DNA of 63,842 bases, filler included, from Reclinomonas americana ATCC 50394 (taxonomy: Eukaryota), in NCBI GenBank assembly GCA_048213135.1. It is 21 parts of 21 records of this genome, joined end to end, with 100 filler letters (N's around TTAATTAATTAA, not from the genome) between each part and the next. Parts side by side here need not be neighbours in the genome. Positions count along the whole stretch, not along the records: positions 1 to 7,665 come from AFZH01021030.1; positions 7,766 to 15,035 come from AFZH01021031.1; 19 more parts are not named here. One strand, 5' to 3'. The notes beneath the pieces are model-generated. The model saw nothing but the letters and a program-made list of their open reading frames with translations. It did no database searches and was not told where the DNA came from. Of the stretch, positions 1,158 to 23,600 are shown piece after piece; the stretch's first letter is position 1; each line of letters opens with the position of its first letter. The position numbers were made by a program, and so were the translations under genes.

Positions 1158-4100
1158 CTACTTCTTTTTGTTGATGTTGTTCTTGTTTTTGTTCTTGTTC
1201 TCCTTCTTCTTCCTCTTCTCCTGCTCGTCCTCCTCCTCCTCCTCCTCCTCCTCCTCTTTCTTCACCACCTCCATTTTCACCGGCTTCTCGTCACTCAGCA
1301 CTGCATTTCTGCTCGTCAGTGCTGATGCTCGCACAACATCCAACAACACAAGGTGACCCCAGATTGTTGCATTTATAGCACTCACCAGCACGCGCAATAT
1401 CCGCCTTTGAAAGACAACCGTCTTGAAGCAGAGTGGCCAACAGGCCAGGGCAGTTGTGGAGCAGTTGCATGGCTTGTGTGACAAAAGTCAGAAGAGCATT
1501 TGGAGTGCTTCCCTTCTGAATGTGCTCGGCACATTCCTATAACCCGAGAAAAGCTATGTAAGTCAGCATCGTCAAATCACGACAGCGTACACAATCATGA
1601 TTGACATGCCTCAGAGTGCCCACGCTCGTCAATCGTTATCAGTGGCCTCTCAACAGCATCCACCAGTGCAGCGTCGCGAAGTCCGCTCTTCTAATGATTC
1701 CGCATGCACGCGATGGCAGGCAGGTAAGTTGCCACGCACACCGCAAGCGGATGTGAATCAGAAAAAACAACTGGCACTCACCTCGATGAAGTTACTCACG
1801 CTCTCAAGCACACCCTCCACTGACTTGGGCGTCGTGCGGCGTGCCGTGTTGGCACTGCCGGCAACACTCTTGCCAAATGCAGCCATGACTACGGATGATG
1901 GACTGCCCGGTCCATCCGACGGTATTCCGCAGTCGTCACAGGCAAGTTGGAAGAGAGCGCGCTGATGATGGACGACTGTAGACTCCATCACCACGGGTGC
2001 CATGAGACCGAATGCCTTCACCATCATCCTCTTCTTGTTACCGCCCTGCTCTCGGGTGTGACGGATGGGTGGGAGCGAGTGAGGAGCCGACGATGACAGC
2101 AATGTCGGCGATACAAAGAACACGTAACAAGCAGTTTCGCAAGCATCAATTGCTCGTTGATGCTCAACTTCGCAGGATCAATCTTGCGGCGCTGTGAAAC
2201 ACAAGCCACGCAGTGTTGAGACGCACCTCAAACATCTCTCATAGAAAGCAGCGTCGGGCGTACCTTGTTTTTCTTCGCGTCATCGTCCACATTGTCGCTG
2301 TCGTCATCATCTTCTTCCTGCTCACCCTTCCTCTCCTCCTCTTTCTTCACCATCTCCATCTCCCTGACGACTGGTCACTCATTTCTCAGCACACGTAAGC
2401 AACGAAGAAACGAGCACAAGCAACCAAACCTCTTTCACTGCACCATGCGGCGGCACGTGCAATCTCCGCCTGCGAAAGGCAGCCGTCCCGAAGCAGAGTG
2501 GCCAGCAGGTTCGGACAGCCGTGGAGAGCCTGTATGGCCTGGGTAACGAATGGCAGAAGAGCATTTGGAGTGCCTCCCTTCTGCAACTTTGCTGCCGATT
2601 CCTGTCATCCAAGCCACAGCAGTACTCGTGAGCCAGCTTTCAATGACGCACATCAGCACGCACACAATTTCACACGCGCCTCAGAGTAGCCACGTTCGTC
2701 AATCACAATCAGTGGCTTCTCGACGGCATCCACCAGCTCAGCTCCTCGGAGCCCACTTTTCTGATGGCGACATCCACGTCAAAGTCGAGTCAGGTACCAC
2801 GCACATAACAATCGGAAGGACACTGAAACAACACACCGACACACTCACCTCTATGAAGTTGCTCATGCTCTTGAGCACACCCTCCACTGACTTGGGCGTC
2901 GTGCCGCGTGCTGTATTGGCACTGTCGGCAAGAGTCTTGACAAATGCAGACTCGACTGCGGATGATGGACGGCCAGGTCCCTCAAACGGTATTCCGCATT
3001 CGTCACAGGCAAGTTGCAGGAGAACGCGCTGATGACGGAGGACTGTGGATTTGAGCACCACAGGTGCCATCAGACCAAATGCCTTCACCAGTATCGTCTT
3101 CTTGTTGCGACCCTGCTCCGAGGCGAGGTGAGCAGATGGGAGTAACAGCATTGTCGATGACATGCAGAGATGATAGCAACACGCAACAAGCAGTTTCGCC
3201 AGCATCAGTTGCTCGTTGACGCTCAGCTTCCCAGGACCACTCTTGCGGAGCTGTGAAGGGCAATCACGAAAGGGTTAGGACACGCACCTGCCTCGCATCT
3301 AACGGAAACGAGCGACGGGCGTACCTTGCCATCGTCCTCGTCCTCCTCTTGTTCTTCCTCCCTCTTCTCTTCTTTCTTCACCATATTCATCTCCCTCAGT
3401 GCTGTTCAGTCGTTGTTTAGCACATACGCACACTGTGCAGCTATGCAAGTCACACAACCAAACCTCGTTCACTGCACCACTCGACAGCACGTGCGATCTC
3501 TGTCTTCGAAAAACAGCCGTCTCGAAGCAGAGTGGACAGCAGGTCAGGGCAGTTGTGGAGAGCTTGCGCTGCCAGCGTGATGAATGGTTGATGGAGTGTC
3601 TGCCTTCTGTGCTGCATCGTCGGCAACTTTGACGACTCCTGACACGCGAATTCCAGAACACGGAGCATGAGAATATGGCAGCCAATTTGAACAACGCACA
3701 CAGATCGCAAGACAGCCAACCTCCGAATAGCCACGTTCATCCACAACAACCAGGGGTCTCTCAATGGCATTCGCCAGAGCAGTGCCACGCAGTTCACTCT
3801 TCTGCATAATAATACATACATTAGCGATGATATTGATTCAGTCGTGCGAAATGGACGCTGCTCACCTCGATAAAGTCGCTCATCATCTGCAGCACTCCCT
3901 CAACCGACTTGGGCGTTGTGGTGCGTGCCTTGTTGACGGCATGGCCAAGACTCTTGCCGAATGAGCTCACGACTACCGCCGAAAGGCAGCCTGCTTTCGA
4001 TGAAGGGATGCCACACTCCTCGCTTGCCAAGTCAAAGAGAATGCGCTGATGATGCCGGACGGTGGATGGCATAACCATTGGTGCCATGATGCCAAACGCC

Positions 4101-6915
4101 ATCACCAGTACCTTCCTCTTGTTGCAGCACTGCTCTCCCATGAATCAGATGAGAGGTGCGATGAACACTCAAGTAGCCAGACGACTACCGAAGAAAGACA
4201 AGACTGCATACACACGCAACTAGTAGCCTCGCCAACATCAGCTTCTCGTCCTTGCTCATTGTGTGAGAATCACTCTCTTGTCGCTGTGAATGCGTTCCAT
4301 GAGACGATGCCAGTATGCACTCACCCCATCATTCATGGTCATACCTTGCTCCTGTTACTCTCACCCATGACGTCCTTCTCATCCCCCTCCCCGTCGACCC
4401 TCGAATCACCCTCCTTTTCCTCCTCCTCCTCCATCTGCATCTCTTCTTTCTTCAGCACCTTGGCTTCCAGCAGAGCTGCATCTCGCCTGTCAGCACTGAC
4501 ATTTCGCACAAAAGAACGCACCCTATGCCATCCAACCTCTCTCACTGCACCACTCGACTGCACGTGCGATCTCCTCCTCGGAGAGACAACCGTCTCGAAT
4601 CAGCGACGCTTGCAAGCCAGGATACTCACGCAGGGCCTGCGCGGCTTGGACGATGAGCGGCAGGAGAAGGTCGTTTCTCTTCCCTCTTTTCTCCATCATA
4701 TTCCACGACTCCTGAAGCACGTTCGACATCGTGAAAGAAACGGGTGAGTCGACACAACCAGGAAATGTAGAAAGCGCACGAAGGAAAGTTGGCTTACCTC
4801 GGAATGGCCCCGTTCATCAACCACAATCAGCGGTCTCTCAACGGCATCCGCCAGGGCAGCGCCGCGCAGTTCACTCTTCTGTATGTATTAATGCTGGTTC
4901 ACTTTGCAGTCACGGTGAAATGGATAGCACAGGCAGATGCTCACCTTGATGAAGTCGCTCATGCTCTGCAGCACTCCCTCAACCGACTTGGGCGTCGTGG
5001 CGCGTGTCATGTTGACGACACGGCCAAGACTCTTGCCGAATGAATCCGTGACTGCGGGCGACGGACTGCCAGCTCCCGATGAAGGAATACCACACTCCTT
5101 GCAGGCGAGTTCAAAAAGTCGGCGTCGATGATGACAGACTGTGTTTCGTTTCAGAATCGGTGCCATGATACCAAATGCCGTCACCAGTAGCTTCTTATTG
5201 TTGCACCGCTGTTCGCACACAATGACGCACGCACCAGGTGTTATGACAGGCAAGCACATGGCAGAGTGCAACTAATCTGCCTTGCTGGGGTATTGCAGCA
5301 CATAAACACGCAACAAGCAGTCTGTGCAGTACGGTTCGCTCGTCTTTGCTCAAATCCGCATTGAATACAAGGCGACCACAATTGACGCGCTGAAAACGCA
5401 CAACCCATGCAACATCGACAATCAACACAACTGCCTCCCAAGCCATACACAGGCGACGACAACGTCGTACCTTTCTCGGAATTGATTCTTCGCCATCATC
5501 ACTTCCTGCATCCTCCTGTGAAAGCCGCATCAGCGGGTGGCCGATTCCACGAAGACACACCCAGTCTCCGTCATTCATGAACTGTTGATGCTCACCTTGG
5601 AGTAATCGTCTTCATGCTTGATGTCATCGTCGTCTTTCTTCACCACCATTTTCACATCGCCAGATTCTGCGTAATGCTGGTCAACACCAGTGCATGCAAC
5701 AACAACAGCCGCGAAGGATCGCAGACCTTTTGATTGGCACCACGTGACGGCGTGCGCAATCTCGGCCTCAGAGAGGTGGCTGTCTCGAAGCAGAGAAGCC
5801 AGAAGACCATCGCACTTGCGCAACGCACCCATGGCCTGTGTGACAAACGGCTGAAGTTGGTCTTTCTTGTTCTTAAACTGCTGTGGCAGTTTCAACCACG
5901 ATTCCTATCTCGAACAAGCCGAGAGAATAAACGTCAGTCGGCATGATCACAGCTTACGCAAAGTATCATGCATCACAAATTCACCTCCGAATGCCCACGC
6001 TCATCCACCTCAATCAGTGGTCTCTCTACAGCATCCACCAGAGCCGCGCCACTGAGCTGGCTCATCTGCATTGTGCAATCATCTGCACGTTGGTTCATCT
6101 GTCACTGTCGTCACAAGGCACACATGCTTGCTCACCTCGATATAGTTGCTCACGCTCCGAAGCACGCCCTCAACTGATTTGGGCATCTTGCTTCGCGAGT
6201 TTTTGGCAGTCTTACCGAGACTCTTGCAAAATGCAATCTTGACTGCAGACGACGTGCAACCCCGCTCCGACGATGGAATTCTGCAGTCGTCACAGGCAAG
6301 CTCAAAGATAACACTCTGATGGTGGATGACGGTGGATTTCTGAACAACGGGTGCCATCAACCCGAATGCCTTCACCAGGATCCTCTTCCGATTGCATCGC
6401 TGTGAGTGATGCAAGAAGAATGGTGAGTGCATCGAGGGAAAGAAGGAGTGAGCAGGGTTGCAATAATGTCAGAGAGAGCACGCACACGCAACAAGCAGCT
6501 TGTTCAGCAGCAGCTCCTCGTCGGCGCTCAACTCCTCTGGCTCTCTCGTAGCTCGAGTCTTGCCACGCTGTGAATTCACACCATGCGTCATTGACACACC
6601 AGAGAACCCAAATGCAGATCGATGAACAAGCACAATAATGTCAGCGACAGAGAATTCACACCTTCTTCTTCTTCTTTGGCGGCGCAAGCTCGTCATCGTT
6701 GGATGCATCCACCTGCAGAGAATGAACAATACGTCAGGTGCCAACTGCGAAGCACAAGAGAGAGGCAAAGAGCGACGCATGCCTCAACGAAGCTCACCTC
6801 CAGAGAACGCTTGCGGACCGATGTCTCAACTGAGCCACGTGCAGGCAAGTTCTCACTGTGATCCACCGGAGACGAATCGACTCGCTGCCTCCTCACACGT
6901 TGCTGTGCAATCATG

Positions 6916-6956
<41 letters not shown>

Positions 6957-7370
6957 TTCAGTGAGGGACATGCTTATCTTGGGATGACGCACAATCACTA
7001 TACCTCGACAATGCCTTCCATCGCTGTGCGTTCCATGTGCTCCTGGTGGGCAGCTGTGTGACATGCATCGCCCAGATGAGACATTACGTGACGCGAGAAC
7101 ATAAAAGACAGCAAGAGAGACGCACAATGCTCAGCGCGATTCTCCGAGTCACTTTGGGCAGCGGCAATGGCAGCTGTGCTCTCGTCGGCGTGCTTCTTCT
7201 TCTTGGCCTTCAAGAGGCCAGCTGGCTCTGCAACACGGAACGAAAACAGCGACAATCTATGATGAGAAAGAAGAAGAAGAAGAAGAAGAAGAAGAAGAAG
7301 AAGAAGAAGAAGAAGAAGAAGAAAAAGAAGGAGGAGGAGAGAGAAACGATGCACTCTCCTTCATCATCAT
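1158..7370 (-). CDS. Multi-exon gene A: unknown protein with five tandem ~200-230 aa modules, N-terminal NLS and acidic linkers (both ends approximate)
   Basis: Five ~1.1 kb units (about 6575-5594, 5530-4345, 4290-3323, 3260-2263, 2200-1160). Each splices to LSxxExLML.KLL | ..LVKAFGLMAP.V..STV.HHQR.LF.LAC.xCGIP...TPKSVEGVL.S.S.FIE | KS.LRGAAL.DA.ERPLI..DERGHSE | ..L.PFV.QA.QAL..C.GLLA.LLRDGCLS.AEIARA..WC | acidic linker. Upstream exon reads VDASNDDELAPPKKKKK. The low-complexity ORF from ATG 8084 may be its first exon. Confidence 0.85.
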
Positions 7371-7539
7371 CACTCAGCATCGCTTTGAGAGGAAAACAGA
7401 TGCGGCGCTCAACACAATAACACACACGCTGGGGAGAGGGAGAGAAAGCACGCACAGTTGTGGCCATATGAAGGGCACAAAGAGTACATCGGCAGCACAC
7501 AAGTGCAACAGGCACAAGCAGAAGGGAGAGAGAGATGAA

Positions 7540-7540
<1 letters not shown>

Positions 7541-7636
<96 letters not shown>
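7541..7636. repeat. (CA)n microsatellite; representative of many (CA/TG), (GA/TC) and (AAG) tracts
   Basis: About 48 CA units; (AAG)n at 7268-7330; (GA)n at 14930-14992, 57367-57460 and 59514-59605. Confidence 0.95.
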
Positions 7637-7638
<2 letters not shown>

Positions 7639-7665
7639 CTACGTACGTACGTACGACGTACGTAC

Positions 7666-7765
7666 NNNNNNNNNNNNNNNNNNNNNNNNNNNNNNNNNNN
7701 NNNNNNNNNTTAATTAATTAANNNNNNNNNNNNNNNNNNNNNNNNNNNNNNNNNNNNNNNNNNNN
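7666..7765. other. Artificial scaffold spacer (first of 20)
   Basis: 44 N + TTAATTAATTAA + 44 N. Identical copies start at 15036, 17693, 23482, 29273, 32245, 34301, 36816, 39736, 41289, 43602, 45128, 47792, 50114, 51556, 55386, 57267, 59623, 61268 and 62710. Confidence 0.98.
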
Positions 7766-8084
7766 TGACGGACGTGGAAGAAGAAGAAGAAGAGGAGGCA
7801 GGCACTCGTCGCCTCGCCATCGCAGGTACACCACGATGAGCAGACGACCGCAATGTGCTCTTCATCTTCTTCTCATCATCATCATCATCGTTGCTGTTGA
7901 TGGAGGCAGAGAAGGAATGCATCTTCATCTTCTTCGTCGTCACATGCTGCTTGCTGTCGACGAGCATCATGTCTGCTTTCTCGTCGTCGCACGGAGAAGA
8001 GGCAGACATTGACAGCGAAAGAGTTGTTGTTGTTGTTGAGCGAGAGCGCGGTGGAGGAGGAGGAGGAGGACGTCGAGCGGCCAT
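7766..8084 (-). CDS. Low-complexity ORF (MAARRPPPPPPPRSRS...) running into the gap; possibly first exon of gene A
   Basis: ATG at 8084, open to the spacer; Pro/Ser/Asp/Lys rich; same strand as and upstream of gene A. Confidence 0.35.
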
Positions 8085-9170
8085 TTGTGTGTGTCTTTGC
8101 AGTTGTTTCACACACACGCGCGCGCTGCGTGATGCAAGAAACTAAGAGAGTAGAGAGTGAGAGCAATGAAGATTCGTTGATCCGAACAGCAAAGATGAAA
8201 AAGGTGACAAGTCGTAATGTGGGAAGAGGAGGAGGAGTGTGGTGAGGAGGGTGAGAAGGGGGGGAGAGGAGGTGTCAGAGAACTGGGCATCCTTGGGTGC
8301 ATCGTCGACTGCGATTGTTTGTCTCTTTGTTTTGATCATGGAGAGAACATGGATCAGGGGATGCTGCAGCTGGGATGCTGATGGACAACAACTCCACAGA
8401 GAGTACAACAGGGCACATGAGCAGCATCCCCTCGATGGACACCGAGGAAGAGCCACGGACAGATACAATGAGAAGGTCACGATATCGCGATCCGGCTGAA
8501 AACCACAACCCTGATCGTCATCGAGACTGCATGCGAACCACACCCGCTGCAGTGGAGCCGATAGGAGGCGCAGGAGTATCAACAGGACCAACAAAGCAGC
8601 ATTGCCTGCTGCTCAATCCACATCGATCCACAGGAAATACGAGTCACTTGCACAATCTCGAGATCGACGACTCCCTCCCCCGCAGCTGCTGGTGGGCCAT
8701 TATGCACCAGCGGCCTGCTGCTCTGCCGCTGCCATGAACAGAGAAGAAGCAAGTGTCGCTGCTTTCTAATATGGCTGGCCTTGGTCAACAAGACAGCCAT
8801 TCTCGTGCAAAATCACGACAGCAAATGCATGCCTCCGGGGCGGCTACATGCACAGCAGCATTCATTCGCCTCCCAAGTCAAATGAAGGCCCCGGTTCCAA
8901 TCCTTCACTCATCTTGCTCTTCCTCCTGCGACAACAACAGGCAATCAGCTGCATGCAGAGAAAAACACACATGCAGAGTCCATGCCTCACAACACACGGC
9001 AGCGGCTCAAAATGTCCCTGAGGGATTCTGCAATCTTCTTCTTCGACAGGCTCCATCGACATCACAACACCATGCATGCGCTGCTTGGCCAGTGAACCCT
9101 CTTCCCCTCTCTCATCCCACCCGCTGCCACTCATTCCCACTCCCCCGCCACGCACCGACGCAGGCATACA

Positions 9171-12100
9171 TCATCGTCCATCGACAGCAGCGTCTTGCTC
9201 TTCACATCCAGCTCCTCCTCCTCCAGAACCATCCTGAATTGGTTGTTCTACATGTATTCCTCCTCGTCCTCCTCGTCCTCCTCGTCCTCCCTCGTCCTCC
9301 TCCTCGTCCTCTTTCTTCACCACCTCCATCTTCACCGGCTTCTCGTCACCCAGTGCTGCATTATGCTCGTTAGAGAGGACGGTGGTACGACATCCACCAA
9401 CACAAGGTGCTCCCACATTGTTGCATTTGGGAGCTCTCACCGGCACGCTCGATCACCGCCTTTGAAAGACAACCGTCTCGAAGCAGAGTGGCCAGCAGGC
9501 CAGGGCAATTGTGGAGCAGATGCATGGCTTGTGTGACAAAAGGCAGAAGAGCATTTGGAGTGCTTCCCTTCCGAATGTGCTCGGCACATTCCTACAATCC
9601 GACAAAAGCAAAGTAAGTCAGCATCGTCAAATCACAACATGATACACAATCATGATTGACATGCCTCAGAGTGCCCACGCTCGTTAATCACAATCAGTGG
9701 TCTCTCGACAGCATCCACCAGCGCAGCGTCGCGAAGACCGCTCTTCTAATGGCCTCGCATGTACACGATGGAAGCTCGGTCAGTTGCCAGACACAACACA
9801 AGCGGATATGAACAAACTGGCACTCACCTCGACATAGTTGCTAACGCTCTCGAGCACACCCTCTACTGACTTGGGCGTTGTGCGGCGTGCCACCTTGGCA
9901 CTGCTGGCAAGACTCTTGCTAAATGCAGCCATGACTGCGGATGATGGGCAACCCGGTCCCTTCGATGGTATTCCGAAGTTGTCACAGGCCAGCTGGAAGA
10001 GAATGCGCTGATGATGGACGACTGTAGACTCCATCACCACGGGTGCCATGAGGCCGAATGCCTTCACCAGCATCCTCTTCCTGTTCCCGCCCTGCTCTCA
10101 GGCGTGAGGAGTTTGTGACAGCAATGTCGGCGATACAAAGAACACGCAACAAGAAATCTCGCCAGCATCAATTGCTCGTTGATGCTCAACTTCGCAGGAT
10201 CAATCTTGCGGCGCTGTTAAAACACAGGCCACGCAGTGTTGAGACGTACCTCATACATATCTCATAGAAAGCAGCGTCGGGCGTACCTTGTTTCTCTTCG
10301 CGTCATCGTCCACACTCTCGATGTCGTCATCATCTTCTTCCTGCTCACCCTTCCTCTCCTCCTCTTTCTTCACCATCTCCATCTCCCTGACGACTGGTCA
10401 CTCATTTCTCAGCACAAGTAAGCAACAAAGCCACGGGCACAAGCAGCCAAACCTCTTTCACTGCACCATTCGGCAGCACGTGCAATCTCCGCCTGCGAAA
10501 GGCAGCCGTCCCGAAGCAGAGTGGCCAGCAGGTCTGAACAGCCGTGGAGAGCCTGCATGGCCTGTCTGACGTGTGGGAGAAGAGCACTAGAAGTGGCTCC
10601 CTTCTGCAACTTTGCTGATTCCTGTCATCCAGTGTGAGCCAGCTTTCAATGACGCGCATTAGCAAACACACAATTTCACACGCACCTCAGAGTGGCCACG
10701 GTCATCAATCACAATCAGTGGCTTCTCGACGGCATCCACCAGCTCAGCTCCCCGAAGGCCACTCTTCTGATGGCGACATCCACGTCGAAGTCGGGTCAGG
10801 TACCACGAACATAACAATCGGTAGGATACTGAAACAACACACCGACACTCACCTCAGTGAAGTTGCTCACACTCATGAGCACACCCTCCACTGACTTGGG
10901 CGTCACGCCACGTGCTCTATTGGCACTTGTGGCAAGACTCTTAACAAATGCAGACAAGACTGTGGCCGAAGGGCAGCCCCGTCCCTCCAATGGTATTCCG
11001 CATTCGTCACAAGCAAGCTGGAAGAAAAGGCGCTGATGATGGAGGACTGTGGATTTGAGCACCACAGGTGCCATGAGGCCACACGCCTTCACCAGTATCC
11101 TCTTGCTGTTGCAACCCTGCTCCGAGGCGAGGTGAGCAGATGGGAGTAACAGCATTGTCGGTGACGTGCAGAGATAACAGCAACACGCAACAAGCAGTTT
11201 CGCCAACATCAGTTGCTCGTTGATGCTCAGCTTCCCATGACCACTCTTGCGGCGCTGTGAAGCGCAAACCACACAGAATTAGGCCACGCACCTGTCTCGC
11301 ATCTAACGGAAACGGGCGACGGGCGTACCTTGCCATCGTCAGCATCCTCATGCTCTTCCTCCCTCTTCTCCTCTTTCTTCACCATCTTCATCTCCCTCAG
11401 TGCTGTTCAGTCGTTGGTGAGCATATGCACACACTATGCAGCTATGCAAGTCACGCAGCCCAACCTCGTGCACTACACCACTCGGCGGCACGTGTGATCT
11501 CTGCCTTCGAAAGACAGCCGTCTCGGAGCAGAGTGGCCAGCAGGCCAGGGCAGTTGTGGAGAGCTTGCATTGCCTGCGCGACGAATGGCAGAAGAGGACT
11601 CTGCCTTCTGTGCTGCACCCTCGACAAGCGTGACGACTCCTGACACGCGAATTCCAGAATAGAAAGCATGAGAATATGGCAGCCAATATGTACAACGCAC
11701 ACTGAGTGCAGGGCAGCCAACCTCCGAATAGCCACGCTCATCCACCACAACCAGGGGTCTCTCAATGGCATCCGTCAGGGCAGCGCCACGCAGTTCACTC
11801 TTTTGCATAATGCCACATACATTAGCGATGATATTGATTCAGTCGCGCGAAATGGACGCTGCTCACCTCGATAAAGTCGCTCATCATCTGCAGCACTCCC
11901 TCAACAGACTTGGGCGTCTTATCGCGTACCTGTTGGACGACACTGCCAAGACTCTTGCCGAACGAGCTCACGACTACCGCCGAAAGGCAGCCTGCTTTCG
12001 ATGAGGGGATGCCACACTCCTTGCTTGCCAAGTCAAAAAGAATGCGCTGGTGATGCCGGACGGTGGATGGCAGCACAATTGGCGCCATGATGCCAAACGT

Positions 12101-14911
12101 CATCACCAGTACCCTCCTCTTATTGCAGCACTGCTCTCGCATGAATCACATTGGTGGTGCGGTGAAAACTCAATCAGCCAGACAACTACCAAAGAAGAAC
12201 AAGACTGCAATCAAACGCAACAAGAAGCCTCGCCAGCATCAGTTGCTCGTCCTTGCTCATCGTTGTTGGAGCAGTCCCTCGTCGCTGTGAATGCGCATCA
12301 TGAGATGCTGCCACAACGTGCACCCACACCATCATTCATGGTCATACCTTGCTCTTGTCACCTTCGGCGACGTCGTCCTTCTCATCCTCCTCCCCGTCGA
12401 CCCTCGAATCATCCTCCTCCTCCTCCTCCTCCTTTTTTATCTCTTCTTCCTTCAGCACCTTCACATCCAGCAGAGCTGCATCTCGTTCGTCAGTTCTGAC
12501 AAATTTCACAGGAGAACGTATTCGACGCCGTCAAACCTTTGTTGGTGCACCACTCTGCGGCCCGTGCAATCTCCGCCTCGGAGAGACAGCCGTCTCGAAT
12601 CAGCAACGCTTGCAAGGCAGGACACTCACGCAGGGCCTGCGCGGCTTGGACGACGAGCGGCAGGAGAAGGTCGTTGCCATTCGGCTTCTTCTCCATCATA
12701 TTCCATGACTCCTGAAGCACGATCGACATCGTGAAAGAAGCGAGTGAGTCGACACAAACCGGGAAATGGTGAGAGCACACAACGGAAAGTTTGCACACCT
12801 CCGAATGGCCCCGTTCATCAACCACAATCAGTGGTCTCTCAATGACATCTGCCAGAGCTGCGCCGCGCAGTTCACTGTTCTGCAAGAGTTACATATGTAT
12901 TAATGCTGGTTCACTTTGCAGTCACGTGTGAAATAGACAGCACAGGCAGATACTCACCTTGATGAAATCGCTCATGCTCCGGAGAACTCCCTCAACTGAT
13001 TTGGATGTCTTGGTGCGCGCTTGCTGGACGACATGGACAAGAGTCTTGGCGAATAAATCCATGACTGCGGGCGACGGACTGCCAGCTCCCGATGAAGGAA
13101 TACCACACTCATTGCAGGCGAGTTCAACGAGAACGCGCTGATGATGCCAGACTGTGCTTCGTTTCAGAATCGGCGCCATAATGCCGAACGCCGTCACCAA
13201 TAGCTTCTTCTTGTTGCACCGCTGTTCGCACACATTGACGCACGCACCAGGTGTTATGACAGGCAAGCACATGGCAGAGAGCAACTACTCTGCCTTGCTG
13301 GGGTATTGCACACGCAACAAGCAGTCTGTCCAGCATCATTCGCTCGTCCATGCTCAAATCCGCATTGAATACATAGCGACTGCGCTTGACGCGCTGCAAA
13401 TACGAACCCCATGAGACATCAACTTATCAACACAACTGCCTCCCAAGCCATTCAAATGCGGCGACAACGACGCACCTTGCTCGTCATTGATTCCTCACCA
13501 TCATCACTTCCTGCATCCTCCTGTGAACGCAACGCATCAGCGCGTGGCCGAGAGTCCACGAAGACACACCCAGTCTCCGTCATTCATGAACTGTTGATGC
13601 TCACCTTGGTGTCATCTTCTTCATGCTTGATGTCATCGTCGTCTTTCTTCACCACCATTTTCACATCGCCAGATTCTGCGTAATGCTGGTCAACACCAGC
13701 GCATGCAACAACAACAGCCGCATGAAGTTGCAGACTTTTTGATTGGCACCACGTGACGGCGTGCGCAATCTCGGCCTCAGAGAGGTGGCTGTCTCGAAGC
13801 AGAGAAGTCAGAAGACCATCACACTCGCGCAGCGCATCCATAGCCTGCTTGACATTTGGCTGATGACGGTCTTTCAGGGCCTTGTTTGCTGGAGGCATTC
13901 TCTCCCATGATTCCTGTCACAAACAAGCCGAATGAACGAGGATCAGTCGACACGATCGCAACAGACAAAACGTATCATGCAGATACAACGAACCTCCGAA
14001 TGTCCACGCTCATCAACCACAATCAGCGGTCTCTCAATAGCATCCGCCAGAGCCGCGCCGCTGAGCTGGCTCACCTGCATTGTGCAATCATCTGCACGTT
14101 GGTTCAATATGCCACGGTCGTCACAACGCACACATGCTTGCTCACCTCGATATAGTTGCTCACGCTACGGAGCACACCCTCCACTGATTTGAGCATTGAG
14201 TGGCGTGAATGATGGGCAGCTCCGCCAAGCCTCTTGAAGAATGCAATCTTGACTGCAGACGACGTGCAACCCCGCTCCGACGATGGAACTCTGCAGTCGT
14301 CACAGGCAAGCTCAAAGAGGACACTCTGATGGTGGATGACTGCGGACCCTTGAACAACGGGTGCCATCAACCCGAACGCCTTCACCAGAATCCTTTTCCG
14401 ATTACATCGCTGCGAGTGACAGGAGAAGAATTGTGAGTGCGACGAGGAGAAGGAGGAGGCTGAAGGGGTTACAATGATGACACAGAGAGCATGCACACGC
14501 AACAAGCAGCTTGTTCAGCAACAGCTTCTCGTCTGTGCTCAACTCCACTGCTTCTTTCGCAGCTCGAGTCTTGCCTTGCTGTGAATCCACAACATGCGTC
14601 ATTGACACAAGAGAACCCAAATGCACATCGATGAAGAAACACAACAATGTTAGCGACAGTATCCACACCTTCTTCTTCTTTGGTGGTGCAAGCTCGTCAT
14701 CGCTGGATGCATCAACCTGTAGTGAATGAACAATACGTCAGGTGCCAACTGTCATGCACGATCGATATCAAGATGCAAGCGATGCGCATGCCTCATCGGA
14801 GTACACCTCCAGAGAACGCTTGCGGGATGATGTTTCAACTGAGTCACGTGCAGGCAAGTCCTCACTGTGATCAACCAGAGGCAAGTCGACTCGCTGTCTC
14901 CTTGCATGTTG
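9171..14911 (-). CDS. Multi-exon gene B: paralogue of gene A with five tandem modules; 5' end lost in gap, 3' end uncertain
   Basis: Colinear with gene A at about 8.1 kb offset. Same exon order and splice sites, similar introns (1560-1610 vs 9613-9665), and an ELAPPKKKK exon near 14670-14720. Confidence 0.85.
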
Positions 14912-14923
14912 CTGTGCAATCAT

Positions 14924-14994
<71 letters not shown>

Positions 14995-15499
14995 GACGGT
15001 ACGAGACGTACGGTACGACGTACGTACGTCGTACGNNNNNNNNNNNNNNNNNNNNNNNNNNNNNNNNNNNNNNNNNNNNTTAATTAATTAANNNNNNNNN
15101 NNNNNNNNNNNNNNNNNNNNNNNNNNNNNNNNNNNTCTTCTCTCTCTCTCCTCCCTCCCTCCCTCCTCTCTCTCTCTCTCTCGTTCTCCCTCAGTCTCTT
15201 TCAGTCTTTCTCTCTGTGTCTCTCCTCCTCACTGTCTCTCTCTCCCTCTCCACCTCTTCCTCTCGTTTCAGTCTTCTTCGCTTTCTCTTTCTCTTTCTCT
15301 TTCTCTCTCCGTCTCTCCCCCTCCGTCTCTCTCTCCTCAGTCTCTGCCTTACTCATTCTCTCTCAGTCTCTCTCGTTCCCTCTTCTTAGCTATCTTTCTC
15401 TGTTTGTCTTCCTCTCGTTCCCTCTTCCTTTGTCTCCCTCACTCTCTCTCTCTCTCTTTCATCCGTTCCCCTTCTCCGCTCTCTCACCCATTCACAGGT

Positions 15500-17685: not shown

Positions 17686-20600
17686 GTGTGTGNNNNNNNN
17701 NNNNNNNNNNNNNNNNNNNNNNNNNNNNNNNNNNNNTTAATTAATTAANNNNNNNNNNNNNNNNNNNNNNNNNNNNNNNNNNNNNNNNNNNNACGCCGAC
17801 GTCGTGTTTGCGCAGGGCGTGGTGCACGCACAGGTTGGACATGCACAGCTTGTTTTTTGTTCAGCTCGTTGCTCACACGTATCGGCAATGCAGGAACGCA
17901 TGTGGCAAATGGAGTTCCAGCGAGCAGTCGGCAACGGGCGACTCAGTGAGATTGTCGGTGCCAACGGCTACGATCTCGACGTCTACATGCGCACGCTGGG
18001 CATCTACAAGGCGGCGCAGACGGGATACGACAGCCTGATGCCGGAGACGCGCAGGCTGGTCGACTCGTATGTCGCGGTTTGTCACATCGATTGCATTTCT
18101 TGATGTGCTTGGTTTCTGAGCTGGTTGTGCAGGGTGTGAATGCATACCTGGCCTCGAAGCAGCCCCTCGGCATCGAGTTCTTCCTCCTGGGATACACGCC
18201 GGAGCCGTGGAAGCCGGCTGACGTGGTGATTATCGGCAAGCTGATGAGGTGAGACTGCGATGGTGGGAGTTTTAGGGTGGAATCCATGGATATTCACCCA
18301 CACGCTGTGCAGTTTGAGCCTGTCGATGAATGCGTACATTGAGAAGGATCGATACGACTTGCTGCGGCGGGGGCTTTCGATTGATGAGGTGCGGATAGAT
18401 TCTTCCCCCCTCCCCCCCTCCCTCTCCTAAAGCGCCTTTTGACTTTGTTCGTTTCGCCACATTTGCTCTTCACTTTCTCTCTTCCCGCTCCCCCGTTCTC
18501 TATTTCCTCCATTTCTTAATCCTCTCACTTCTTCTTTCTTTCTTCTTTCTGTCTTCCCAGCCTCTCTCTCTTGCCCACTTTCCCCTCTCTTTCCCCTCTC
18601 TCCATTTCTTTCCTCTCTTCCCACTGTCCCTCTTTCCTTTCTCCCTCCCTTCCCTCTTCTCATCTCTTCACCTCTCTCCGCCTCATTTCTCCTTTCCCTT
18701 CTTTTCCCCTCTCCTCCACTCTCCTCCACTCTCCTCCCCTCTCCTCCCCTCTCCTCTCCTCTCCCCCCTCTTTCCCCTCTTTCCCTCCTTTCCCTCCTTT
18801 CCTCTCTTCCCGCTGTCCATCTTTCCCCTCTCTCCCCTCTCCCTCCCCTCTCCCTCTCTCTCCCTCCCTCTCCCTCCCCTCTCCCTCCCCTCTCCCTTCC
18901 CCTTTCCCTTCCCACCCTCCGCCTCACTGTTCCTTCTCCCTTTCCCCTCCCTCTCACGCCGCAGGTCGAGCGCCTCATCACCTCCTACCCCGACGACGGA
19001 GTCACGGTGCTCTCCGACGAGGACATTGCTGGCAATAATTACAAGGGTAAGGCGAGCGATTTCACCCGCCATCTCATCTCTCCTCTCACCATCCACCACA
19101 GCCATTCCGGTCAACGCCACCGTCAGCGACGCCATGATTCCCGCCTTTGTGCAAAAGATGCACCCGCGAACTGGAGAGGTTGCGTCGTGTCGCGACTCGT
19201 TGTATCGACACGCTCGTCGCCACTCATTTTGCAGACGCAGTCCTTCTCGTCCACCACCAACTTGTACAAGCGCGTGGAGGGTCTTCTCGGCACCGTCATG
19301 CCTGACCGCCTCCGACAGTCGAACAACTGGGTGCGCGAGATTTGGTGAATGCTGCTGCGCTGGCACAAACTCATTTTTTGTGTGACAAAAGGTGGTGGGC
19401 AAGAACACCAAGTCCGGCAAGCCCCTGCTGGCCAACGGTGCGTGCGGAGGGAAATGTTGTGCGATCCTATAGCTGTTTCTGACGAGTTCATGATGCAGAC
19501 CCGCATCTGGAACTCACGCTGCCGTCGATCTGGATCCTCAACCACTTGCGCTCGGCCAACTTTGAGGTCATTGGCGCTGCATTCCCTGGTTTGTGGATTA
19601 ATCACTGTGTGCTTTTGTCGCTAGTGCGTGGCTCAAGGCAATTGTTCGCGACAGGTGCTCCGGGTGTGATTATTGGACGCAACGAAGTGATTGCGTGGGG
19701 AGTGACCAATGCCGGTACCGATGTGCAGGCGAGTGTGGATTGACGGCAGAAAGCTCCTCATGAAATCCTCTCACGTGCCACTGCAGGACCACTTTATCAT
19801 GGACGGCACCGCCACCCAGTACAAGTGAGTTGTTGACTGGCGCTGCTCCTCTTTCTTTCTCACTTCTCACTCGCTCATCAGGCACGAGGGCGAGATGAAG
19901 CCGTACACTATGCGACAGGTCCGTTTCCTTACTGTGGTGTTGTTGTCGATCTTGTTTCTTCTTTCTTCCTCTCTTTGTCTTCTCTTCTTCTTCCTGTTTG
20001 TTCTCCTTCTCGTTCTGCTTCATCTTCTCTCCTCTTACTCCTCCTCTCTTCGTTGTGTTCTTCCATTTCCTTCATTCTATTGCGCTCTTTCGCAGCACTC
20101 ACTTTCGTGATCGCAGGAGGTGATCAAGATCAAGGGAAAGAGCTCGGTGAGTGCCGCTTGCTTGCGTTTCCGGGCGACTGAATCATCGTTGCTCACTGCC
20201 TCGTTGTCGCAGAAAACCATCCAAGTTCGCGAGTCCGTGTACGGTCCCGTGATCAACGAGGAGGGCGTAACTTCAAGCGGCGAGCAGCCTCTGTGCTTGC
20301 ACTGGATCGGACTGTTCCCGGGTGACACGACGTTGCGTGTGCGGTGTCAAACGGTGGTCAAAGTGATGAGCAGCACGCTGACGGTATCATGCGCAGCCTC
20401 GATTCAATGTACAAGATGGCGCGTGCGGCCAGCTGGGCCGATTTTGAGGATGCCTTGCGGTCGTACACGGCACCGGCTCAGGTCTTGCGGTCTTCTTGTA
20501 GTTGTCTATCTTGGTGGTCACTTACACGCTTTGCGATTGCAGAACTTTGTTTATGCCGATGTCAAGGTTTGACATGAATTGTGTGCTTTCAATGTTGGAT

Positions 20601-23600
20601 TTGTTGCTGATGGATGTTGCCACTTGCAGGGCAATTTTGGATATCGCACGAGTGGACTGGTGCCCGTTCGCAGTTGCGTTTGGACCAACAGCGTGGGAGA
20701 GCAGGATCGTTCTCCGTTCTTCCTCCGCAGAGGGAGAGGGGCAGACAGCGAGACGTAAGGAACTTCTCTCATTCCCCGTTTTTTTAGTTCCATTCGCACC
20801 CTTCGTTCTCTTCCCATCCCCTTCCTCCTCAGTCCCTTCTCTCTTCTCCTTCCTCCTCAATCCTTTCTCTCTTCTCCTTCTTCTCAACACTCATCACCTT
20901 CCCTTCCGCTTCCCCTTCCCCTTCCCCTTCCCTTTCCCCTCTTCCCACTTCCCCTCCCTTCCCCCTTCCTCTTCTCCCTTCCTCTTCTCCCTTCCCCCTT
21001 CTCCCTTCCCCTTCCTCTCCCTCTCCCTCCCCCTTCCCATTCCCCCTGCTCCCTTCCCGCTTCCCCTTCCCCTCAATCCCTTCCCCTCAATCTCTTCCCC
21101 TCAATCCCTTCTCCCTCTCCCTCCCCCCTTCCCATTCCCCCTTTCCTTCCCTTCCCCTTCATTCCCCAGACGGCTACTCCGGCAAGTACCCCGCCCCCGG
21201 CAACGGCGATTTCAAGTGGGTCGAGTTCCTGCCATTCGGTTCGCAGCATCCAACTTTCCCTCTCCCTCCCTCATTCCCTTTTCTCACCGACCACCACAGA
21301 CCAAATGCCATACACCCTCAACCCGGCCAAGGGCTACATCGTCTCCGCCAACAACAAGATCACGCCGAACTCGTACCCGCACACGATTGCCACCGACTGG
21401 GAGGATCCCTACCGGTACGCTCCCCATCGCATCTCCTGCCCATTGTGCAAATCCTCACCAACCAACTTTGGCACAGCGCTCAGCAAATCACCAACATGCT
21501 CACCTCGCAAATCGCCCGTGGTCGAGTGTCGCGCGAAGACATGGCCGCCATCCAGATGAGCCAGCACTCGCTGTTCTTTGACGCCGTCAAGCCGCTGCTC
21601 ATGGGCTATCAGGCCAAGGCCGTCGTCAAATGGTTTGCTCACGAAATCTTTGTGATATGATGATTTTGCTTGTCGTCGACTCATTTGTGTGATTGCAGCT
21701 CGGCGCAAGCTTCCGATTTCTTCTCCGTCATTGGCGCGCACAATGGTGACGCGACGGTGGGCTCGTTTGGGCCAACGTACTTTGCCATGTGGTGCGTGTG
21801 TGATGGAGGTGTGCTGTTGGGAAGGATCAAGATGCTGACCCACCGCAGGTATCGCTCGATTGCGCGAGTGGCCGCCAAGCGCACCGGGGAGACGTATTGG
21901 AGGTGTGTGGTGGGTGGGAGGGGGGGAGGGAGGGAGGAAGAGGGAGAGGGAAGAAGTGAGAGAGGAAAGTGAGAGAACAATGTATCATGCTGACATGTGT
22001 ACTCGCGAAGGAGAATGTGAATGAGACGGACGAAGAGAAGAATCAGTGACTGCAATCTTTGCAACTGAGAAAGAGAGAGGGTATCGACGAAAAGAGCTTG
22101 AGTGTGTGGAGAGTAGAGGAGAAAGAGAACGGGGAAGAGAGCGCTGGCAATTGAGGCGTGGGTAGGCAAGTGGGAAAGCAGCGTATTTGCTCACAAATGC
22201 AAAGAAGCAATCAAATGTGAATCGGGGCGCAGTCTCTGCCACACTCTCTCACGCTCACATTCCTTTTTCCGCTCGCTCACTCTCTCATACGCGCCCATTC
22301 TCACAAACCCACTCACTCGATCACTTTTTCCACCCTTTCAATATCTCTCGCTCACTCCCTCTCTCTCTCCGACTCTCTTCTTCACTCTCTTGCACCCTGT
22401 GTTAAATGCCTGATTGCATCTGTTTGGCGCTCTGTGCTGGTGCATGAGAGCTGGAGATCTCATTGCACGAGTGATGGTTGTTGTGATTTTTTTGGAGGTG
22501 GACGACCAAGAGCATCAATCTCGTGTCCTTTCCTTCTATTATTCGCTCGTTCTATTCTCATGCTCACACCTTTGCGTGCCCTCTTTCCCTTCCTTGCCAT
22601 GCTCACTGCCTCTCCTTTTGCCTTCCCCGCAGGGACCTCGGATTCACACTTTCCGGTTCGTATTCCAGCTCTCTACCCGTTCCCTGTCCACATTGGCGGC
22701 TCACTGTTCATCGTAGTCCTCAAGACTCCCGCCGACTACGACACCTATTGCCTGGCCGACTTTGGAGTGACGTGCGAACAAGCCATTGTCCAATCAGTGT
22801 GCGAGGCTGCGACGGCGGCCAAGGGTCACGCGTGGGGCAAGGATGTTGCGTTGTCGTCAATCTCTCTTTCTGGTGATGCACAGACCTTTCTCACCTGCCG
22901 TACGCTACAGGAGCACATCATGATGATTTCACACCGAGTGCTGGGCCAGTCTTCTCTGGCTTGCTGTGCCAATCGTGCGGTCGGTGTCGGTGGCGATCAG
23001 TGGACGTGCGTAACTGCTGCACTCGAAGCTCCTTCCCTTGGTTTTAACCAAGAGTTTCTGTCTGTGTCTGCAGTCCAAACGTGTCGGCGTACACACTGCG
23101 AAGCGATATGCACTTTGAGTCGCACCACGGCGCCTCGTATCGACAGATTGTCGACCTCGGTTCTCCAGAATCAAGGTGCGGCCTTGATCACTATGCACTG
23201 CACTCTCTCGCTCACTGCCTTCTGCACTCAATCAATGCACCAATTCTCTTGCACTCACTCACTCACTCCCCCAATCATTTCGTCACTCACTCCCTGACTC
23301 TCTTCCTTTTCTCACTCCCCTCTCGCTCTCCCCTCTCGCTCTCCCCTCTCGCTCTCCCTTCTCGCTCTCACTTCTCGCTCTCCCTTCTCGCTGCTCTCCC
23401 TCTCCCTCTTCCCTCTCGCTCTCCCTTCTCGCTCTCCCCTCTCGCTCTCCCTCCCCTCTCGCTCTCCCCTCTCGCTCTCCCNNNNNNNNNNNNNNNNNNN
23501 NNNNNNNNNNNNNNNNNNNNNNNNNTTAATTAATTAANNNNNNNNNNNNNNNNNNNNNNNNNNNNNNNNNNNNNNNNNNNNCCCCTCTCGCTCTCCCCTC

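Follow-up and report, generated by a model that had tools for sequence, protein, structure and literature searches.

UBF consists of several HMG boxes and an acidic tail, and nucleolin is a nuclear protein with tandem domains and acidic segments. Here, we describe two genes, A and B, in a 63,842-base stretch of DNA from Reclinomonas americana ATCC 50394 (in the following, the window), whose predicted products recall these proteins in their layout. Each is a protein of ~135 kDa with a short basic N-terminus, followed by five copies of a module for which we detected no relative. The likeness to UBF and nucleolin is one of architecture only, with serial basic, putatively helical domains, Glu/Asp-rich stretches and lysine clusters in an arrangement suited to multivalent binding of nucleic acids or chromatin. 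Unlike the HMG box (~75 amino acids, aa) or the RRM, the repeated domain is ~190 aa long and matches no Pfam family, and each domain is separated from the next by an acidic stretch, in place of a single acidic tail.

A second point of reference is the class of lineage-specific orphan repeat proteins of protists, which the two genes resemble in having no outside homolog, in an apparent history of domain amplification followed by gene duplication, and in moderate purifying selection. They are set apart from this class only by the size of the repeat unit (~190 aa, five exons) and by the strict conservation of its exon structure. The gene models described below make it very probable that A and B are two intact, intron-rich, paralogous protein-coding genes.

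The ten-copy module and its exons

In a repeat search of the window, the module appears as a family of ten copies that are 62-86% identical to a 300-nucleotide (nt) reference copy. They are located at positions 1774, 2841, 3858, 4937, 6128, 9820, 10845, 11859, 12950 and 14138, with a copy-to-copy spacing of 1014-1191 nt within each of the two contigs that carry the genes. Long two-copy families connect these contigs at 81-95% identity, and the only repeats found were the modules themselves and microsatellites. A hidden Markov model (HMM) of the module, run on the 63.8-kb window, matches the two gene stretches only, with E-values down to 1e-52, and leaves the remaining 48 kb empty. The motifs that the first-pass annotation had listed for its ten diverged copies of one module lie on the minus strand and recur in eight to ten of the ten modules: FG[LI]MAP and [PL]KSVEGVL are found in nine each, the remaining one reading CGLMAP and SKSVEGVL, respectively, E[RK]PL..[IV]D[ED]RG[HY]SE in all but B5, which reads INERG, and LL[RQ]D[GS][CH][LF]S in eight, with LIRDGCLS in A2 and B2. 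The repeat family and the motifs confirm the ten copies.

Including its linker, a module measures 218-247 aa, against the ~200-230 aa first estimated, and its core about 191-199 aa. Each module is encoded by five exons (a-e), to which A1 and B1 add one small linker exon (e2). Exon a (21-25 aa) carries the motif LS.DE.L.L..LL. Exon b, the core exon, encodes 88 aa in all ten copies, with zero indels, 25 invariant columns and a mean column identity of 72%. Exon c (27 aa, 26 in B3) contains ERPL..VDERGHSE, exon d (50-59 aa) contains LLRDGCLS.AEIA, and exon e encodes the acidic linker, which starts with a conserved MVKKEE-like stretch. Across the core, 48 of the 199 columns are invariant. There is no internal repeat within the module, as an hhalign comparison of the a+b half with the c+d half yielded a probability of 0.6%.

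To obtain the gene models, the DNA of the ten modules was aligned, the conserved splice sites were read off, and one exon plan was applied to both contigs. Gene A (1158..6914, minus strand) has 28 exons that encode 1218 aa and form an open frame from the ATG to the stop codon at 1160-1158. The same plan gives an open frame of 28 exons and 1227 aa for its paralog on another contig, gene B (9171..14923, minus strand). The extent of 1158..14911 initially assigned to the array is therefore correct at the stop end of gene A (1158) and needs adjustment at the other end, where gene B starts at 14923, not 14911.

All of the following features lie on the minus strand. In gene A, two N-terminal exons (6914-6798 and 6712-6662) precede the five modules: A1 spans 5471..6567 (a 6567-6493, b 6399-6136, c 6065-5985, d 5904-5727, e 5666-5596, e2 5515-5471), A2 4345..5389 (a 5389-5315, b 5208-4945, c 4878-4798, d 4711-4537, e 4475-4345), A3 3325..4283 (a 4283-4221, b 4129-3866, c 3801-3721, d 3638-3464, e 3401-3325), A4 2264..3250 (a 3250-3188, b 3112-2849, c 2760-2680, d 2601-2430, e 2370-2264) and A5 1158..2191 (a 2191-2129, b 2045-1782, c 1690-1610, d 1536-1386, e 1300-1158). 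Module A5 ends in a tail that is first Glu-rich and then Lys/Asn-rich. Likewise, gene B starts with two N-terminal exons (14923-14807 and 14716-14669), followed by B1 at 13476..14578 (a 14578-14504, b 14409-14146, c 14074-13994, d 13913-13736, e 13675-13605, e2 13520-13476), B2 at 12348..13393 (a 13393-13319, b 13221-12958, c 12879-12799, d 12711-12537, e 12475-12348), B3 at 11329..12284 (a 12284-12222, b 12130-11867, c 11799-11722, d 11639-11465, e 11402-11329), B4 at 10287..11254 (a 11254-11192, b 11116-10853, c 10766-10686, d 10621-10453, e 10393-10287) and B5 at 9171..10213 (a 10213-10151, b 10091-9828, c 9745-9665, d 9591-9441, e 9355-9171).

The 27 introns of gene A all end in AG and begin with GT (25) or GC (2). 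Taken together, the 54 introns of both genes are 59-106 nt long (median 80), with GT donors in 51 and GC donors in three, AG acceptors in all 54 (CAG in 48), and a G at position +5 in 42; 44 are in phase 0 and ten in phase 1. Only seven of the 54 are in frame and free of stop codons. The reading frame thus depends on splicing, since the other 47 cannot be read through, and the multi-exon nature of the module, which had been noted from the outset, is well founded with 28 exons per gene. The three GC donors follow exon c of A4, A5 and B5 (first intron bases 2679, 1609 and 9664, minus strand). As B4, the counterpart of A4, has GT at this site, the donor type has changed since the gene duplication. 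At the acceptor of exon c in B3 (11799-11802), CAG is mutated to CAA; use of an AG located 3 nt farther downstream preserves the frame, and one Lys codon is lost.

Divergence, selection and origin of the array

Genes A and B are collinear, with 85.8% nucleotide identity, only over a stretch that begins just inside the last exon and extends to the (AG)n run preceding the ATG (1189-6956 versus 9243-14966). No similarity connects the 1.1-1.4 kb below the two stop codons, and no other part of the window matches the flanks. The proteins are 79.6% identical (965 of 1213 aligned residues). Across the 1213 codons, the nonsynonymous rate (dN) is 0.118 and the synonymous rate (dS) 0.269, for a dN/dS of 0.44, and divergence is 0.11 at codon positions 1 and 2 and 0.185 at position 3. 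For the cores, dN/dS is 0.35-0.57 across the five A/B module pairs and 0.26-0.42 across 20 within-gene pairs, for which dS (0.49-1.45) is partly saturated. Accordingly, all 25 module comparisons with a defined dS have a dN/dS below 1, and this ratio, which the first-pass annotation had put forward as a check, stays well below 1 over its whole range of 0.26-0.57. Moreover, all three exonic indels between the gene bodies are exactly 3 nt long, and three of the 19 intronic ones are multiples of three.

The substitution pattern indicates that both genes are under purifying selection, and that the constraint is moderate, not strong. We count against these signs of selection that the introns of A and B have diverged less (0.158, Jukes-Cantor) than the synonymous sites (0.269). 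Possible explanations are that splicing constrains these very short introns, that codon usage affects dS, or that gene conversion was patchy.

At the C-termini, the genes differ by a 2-nt indel in the Glu-rich tail (~1235 in gene A versus 9258-9311 in gene B), which shifts the frame of the last ~45 codons of B, makes them Gly/Arg-rich over a (TCC)n repeat and displaces the stop codon. The tail of A with its Glu, Lys and Asn runs and that of B with its Gly and Arg runs differ because of this indel.

Counterpart modules (Ai/Bi) are 76-82% identical, all other module pairs 46-69%. In a maximum-likelihood tree of the modules, Ai and Bi pair in all five cases with support of at least 96/93, and modules 4 and 5 are grouped together (96/95). 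Both the tree and the identity matrix imply that the five-fold array is older than the gene duplication. The array would thus have arisen first, with the split between modules 4 and 5 as its youngest, and the whole gene would have been copied later.

The arrangement of the two genes has to be read with the composition of the window in mind. It strings together 21 short, unrelated contigs of about 1.3-7.7 kb, with 20 linkers and 40 runs of exactly 44 N. Each linker has the form N44-TTAATTAATTAA-N44, and the 12-mer TTAATTAATTAA between the paired N runs is a six-frame stop linker. Gene A lies on the contig at 1..7665 and gene B on that at 7766..15035; an artificial joint of this form separates them (7666..7765), and another lies just upstream of gene B (15036..15135). 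Because the contigs were joined artificially, the spacing of ~8 kb and the side-by-side position of A and B are uninformative, and any finding that rests on distance or adjacency across these joints is unsafe. Of the two tandem paralogs initially proposed, the paralogy is upheld and the tandem arrangement is not, as adjacency of genes on separate contigs is no evidence for it.

The same circumstances could suggest that A and B are a single gene that occurs twice in the window, as alleles or haplotigs or through duplication during assembly, and that concatenation made the two copies neighbors. Indeed, they lie on different short contigs, both of which break in microsatellites, and their homology extends through the (AG)n run at the 5' end. 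However, 14% nucleotide and 20% protein divergence with a dN of 0.118 exceed, in our judgement, what is expected for alleles, the C-terminal tails differ by the 2-nt indel, and the 1.1-1.4 kb below the stops are unrelated. On account of this divergence, the differing tails and the unrelated 3' flanks, we read A and B as paralogs and regard an allelic relationship or assembly duplication as quite improbable.

It is still far less credible that the two genes are decaying, non-functional or transposon-borne sequences. No homologs were found and the copies occur in different flanking contexts, as might be expected of such elements. Against this stand two frames of ~3.66 kb that are open across 28 exons each, usable splice sites at all 54 introns, the dN/dS below 1 in all 25 comparisons, and the in-frame exonic indels. 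In addition, the module exons have no Pfam match to transposases, integrases, reverse transcriptases or RNase H, no terminal repeats were found, and each gene has 27 introns. As far as the sequence can tell, transposon, pseudogene and artefact readings fit the data poorly.

Upstream of the start codons, both genes have a microsatellite: (AG)19 at 6919..6956, immediately 5' of the gene A start codon, and its counterpart (AG)32 at 14929-14993, before gene B. On the coding strand, these read (CT)n, and they end a few bases before the start codon in both genes. Given their difference in length (19 versus 32 units), they probably represent a microsatellite in the 5' untranslated region or promoter. 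The contig of gene B stops 112 nt upstream of the ATG, within the (AG)n run and then TACG-like junk. Such TACG-periodic sequence closes both contigs (7637-7665 and 14990-15035), directly after (AC)48 and (AG)32 microsatellites, respectively; it looks like a sequencing flow-order or read-end artefact rather than biology. Further joints lie at 17693-17792, 23482-23581 and 16 more sites.

Relatives of the module

Our homology searches used exon-level pieces, or pieces with a read-through intron, rather than the whole spliced module. In Pfam, seven of ten open reading frame (ORF) translations had no match at E<=1, and none reached a gathering cut-off; the other three gave sub-threshold matches to NpmA (0.094), HTH_24 (0.099) and RTX (0.028). 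None of the ten copies of exon b matched any family at E<=10, and exon d matched five families, each in one or two of the ten copies and all below the cut-off. As a control, single exons on neighboring contigs do match Pfam families with E-values from 2e-5 to 5e-18, namely APH (1.6e-9), Laminin_G_3 (1.9e-13), HECT (4.7e-18), RNase H2B (4.5e-6 and 2.2e-5), TLDc (7e-11) and Penicil_amidase (3e-10), so the exon-level approach works on the exons of this genome.

A profile of exon b, searched against 1,835,955,588 representative proteins in a library that includes protist proteomes (EukProt and MMETSP entries), gave two matches at E<=0.001 and none at E<=1e-10. The two marginal matches (E 4.8e-4 and 9.8e-4) turned out on reading to be unrelated repeat proteins. 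A word-index search with the exon d alignment, for longer proteins only, returned none at E<=0.01. Against sequence profiles of the PDB, the best E-values were 0.51 for exon b and 0.11 for exon d, with none below 0.1. Pattern scans with the exon b alignment yielded 32 metagenome, 24 prokaryote-genome and 25 viral stretches, none of which tblastn confirmed. Candidates from the ESM Atlas were treated as chance-level, given recognition values of 1651 and 1725, both under the mark of 2300; this includes the best scores, 0.90 for a bacterial cluster, 0.89 for DndB (148 shared features) and 0.83 for ILVD_EDD_N. Finally, a full-text literature search with the motif strings of the module found no paper, and Rfam had no match in the whole window.

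With nothing above the cut-off in Pfam, the PDB profiles or the large profile search, the original description of the domain as unrecognized stands at the exon level. The module thus appears to be a domain without a relative detectable by sequence, and a new protein family as far as these searches reach; on the same grounds, the gene pair is lineage-specific or lineage-restricted. If the domain is truly new, it adds a family that is lacking in current databases and provides a clean natural case of exon-preserving domain amplification, in which all ten copies of the module have retained their five exons in register. The value of such a case is limited by the fact that orphan genes are common in poorly sampled protists, and a search with the full module could still place it in a known fold.

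Two known DNA-binding motifs invite comparison. In exon d, the segment LLATLLRDGCLSQAEIARA aligns weakly to positions 8-26 of HTH_24 (PF13412) and is modeled as a helix-turn-helix. However, only two of the ten modules match this family, with an E-value of about 0.06 and a score of 13 bits, short of the 21.9 required. Unlike in winged helix-turn-helix domains, the second helix is followed by an acidic linker instead of a recognition helix and wing, and no winged-helix structure stood out in fold searches of the half-domain models described below. With its score under 21.9 bits and the recognition helix and wing replaced by an acidic linker, we rejected membership in this family. The second motif, SAP or helix-extension-helix, is a two-helix DNA-binding motif of 35 residues with a conserved Gly in its linker. 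The junction of exons a and b may follow a similar layout, in which an amphipathic helix (LS.DE.L.L..LL) would lead through a short turn into a second, basic helix (NKK..LVKAF). Unlike in SAP, the turn has an invariant Asn, not Gly, and an intron splits the junction in all ten copies; we therefore treat this likeness as a lead only.

Candidate functions and neighboring contigs

Neither protein has an N-terminal hydrophobic signal. Both carry an N-terminal KKKK(K)R cluster and further K/R clusters between modules; in A, for instance, these are KKKKKR at residue 52, KKNKRRK at 982 and KRKKK at 1200. In nine of the ten modules, the core has an isoelectric point (pI) of 8.7-9.4 and a net charge of +4 to +8, the core of A5 being neutral (pI 7.1). 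The Glu/Asp-rich linkers comprise 25-56 aa, nine of the ten with a pI of 4.1-4.9 and a net charge of -3 to -13. This alternation of basic cores and acidic linkers agrees well with the beads-on-a-string architecture proposed in the first-pass annotation. Invariant charged residues (in module numbering) are E17, K84, R94, K99, E102, E127, R136, E140, E141 and D181.

Structure was modeled with AlphaFold2 for two contiguous translations, each a half-domain that carries an in-frame intron as an insert. For exons a and b of A4 (134 aa, 18-row alignment), the model has five helices with a predicted local distance difference test score (pLDDT) of 70.4 and a predicted template modeling score (pTM) of 0.61; residues 71-110 reach a pLDDT of 83-93, and the intron-coded part is below 50. 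For exons c and d of B2 (114 aa, ten rows, with an alignment built from exon d rows only), pLDDT is 61.2 and pTM 0.38. Here, exon d is modeled as three helices (pLDDT 72-79); the hairpin modeled between exon c and the intron-coded part is unconvincing. The models are consistent with a mainly helical domain, as had been suggested, for exons a, b and d, and address exon c at low confidence only. In Foldseek, both half-domain models had no match in the PDB at E<=0.001 and none above background. As they cover half-domains, the models allow no conclusion on the fold of the whole module. When the four exon products of A4 were co-modeled as separate chains with the alignments unused, the score was 0.01 against a mark of 0.34, with chains of fewer than 30 residues being outside the calibration, and we count this score neither for nor against any reading.

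Given the basic helical domains, the acidic spacers, the lysine clusters, and the lack of a signal peptide and of an enzyme signature, we tentatively predict a multivalent nuclear binder of nucleic acid or chromatin. The lysine/arginine clusters, which resemble import signals, would direct the protein to the nucleus. There, it may act as a non-enzymatic multivalent binder or scaffold, in which each of the five basic, largely helical domains would touch a polyanionic or repeated partner, most likely nucleic acid or chromatin. The acidic linkers could serve as flexible spacers; in addition, they may screen the basic domains or themselves bind histones or other basic partners. The invariant charged residues might form a conserved surface that stabilizes the fold or binds the partner. 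More speculative, and in our view doubtful, is a fuller proposal: the module would be a new domain whose mostly helical fold is likewise new, restricted to a protist lineage that is undersampled, and its five-fold amplification would have preceded the gene duplication. Proteins of this type would constitute a new class of nuclear, multivalent binders of nucleic acid or chromatin, in which basic domains alternate with acidic linkers and the latter tune or mask the binding.

Several points weigh against these proposals. All grounds for a nuclear binder are circumstantial, with location and binding deduced from sequence features; the import signals were judged by eye from basic clusters rather than with a predictor, and non-nuclear proteins also show alternating basic and acidic segments. 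Module A5 combines its neutral core with a basic tail, the model of the second half-domain is poor, and the paralog dN/dS of 0.35-0.57 speaks for only moderate constraint. Since only exon-level pieces were searched, a known fold or family could have been missed, and Pfam cannot see a motif that is split by an exon junction, as a helix-turn-helix encoded partly by exon a and partly by exon b would be.

The repeat architecture would also suit a cytoplasmic structural or scaffold protein, for example a cytoskeletal or ciliary one, whose repeats would bind a polymer or other proteins and not nucleic acid. Microtubule-associated proteins often contain acidic stretches, and a TPGS2-like protein is encoded in the window, so the organism probably has cilia or flagella. 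However, the lysine clusters at the N-terminus and between modules, like the basic cores, are at least as compatible with nuclear binding of nucleic acid, and we found no coiled coil and no known cytoskeletal domain in the proteins. We consider a cytoplasmic role unlikely.

Another reading, which the first-pass annotation had raised, takes each module as a small metal-binding or catalytic domain, with His, Cys, Asp and Glu residues (HH-x8-C-x2-C and DERG(H/Y)SE) as a Zn or active site, and the whole protein as a five-fold enzyme or redox array. The proteins are indeed rich in Cys (31-33) and His (25-34), H52 is invariant, H51 and C64 are present in nine and C61 in eight of the ten modules, and the D-E-R-G block is nearly invariant. 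Yet the 48 invariant core columns include no Cys and a single His (H52), the position H/Y varies, and the CxxC pair is broken by Ser in A3 and B3 and by Phe in B5, so that a structural zinc site with four Cys/His ligands in every copy is not found. Furthermore, a single helix is predicted at model residues 67-85 with HH at one end and CxxC at the other, and by helix geometry the two would be too far apart for one metal site. No enzyme or zinc-finger family was matched, and five tandem active sites would be unusual. The proposed site thus finds no support, and we judge a metal-dependent or catalytic array to be very unlikely; individual modules may still bind metal. Of the functions weighed here, we retain the multivalent nuclear binder as our working prediction.

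Other contigs of the window carry exons of ordinary protein families. The exons that match Pfam families lie at 20759-21559 (+), 33619-34155 (-), 56086-57264 (+), 58721-59116 (+), 60515-61045 (-) and 61544-62320 (-), and the families are Penicil_amidase, RNase H2 subunit B, APH phosphotransferase, TLDc, HECT and Laminin_G_3. The TPGS2-like gene (tubulin polyglutamylase complex subunit 2; 62811-63804, minus strand) gave 44 matches in a word-index protein search, of which the best full-length ones share about 47-61% identity and come from diverse protists. Its relatives are thus distant, which points to a poorly sampled organism; one short fragment reaches 81% identity over 22% of the query.

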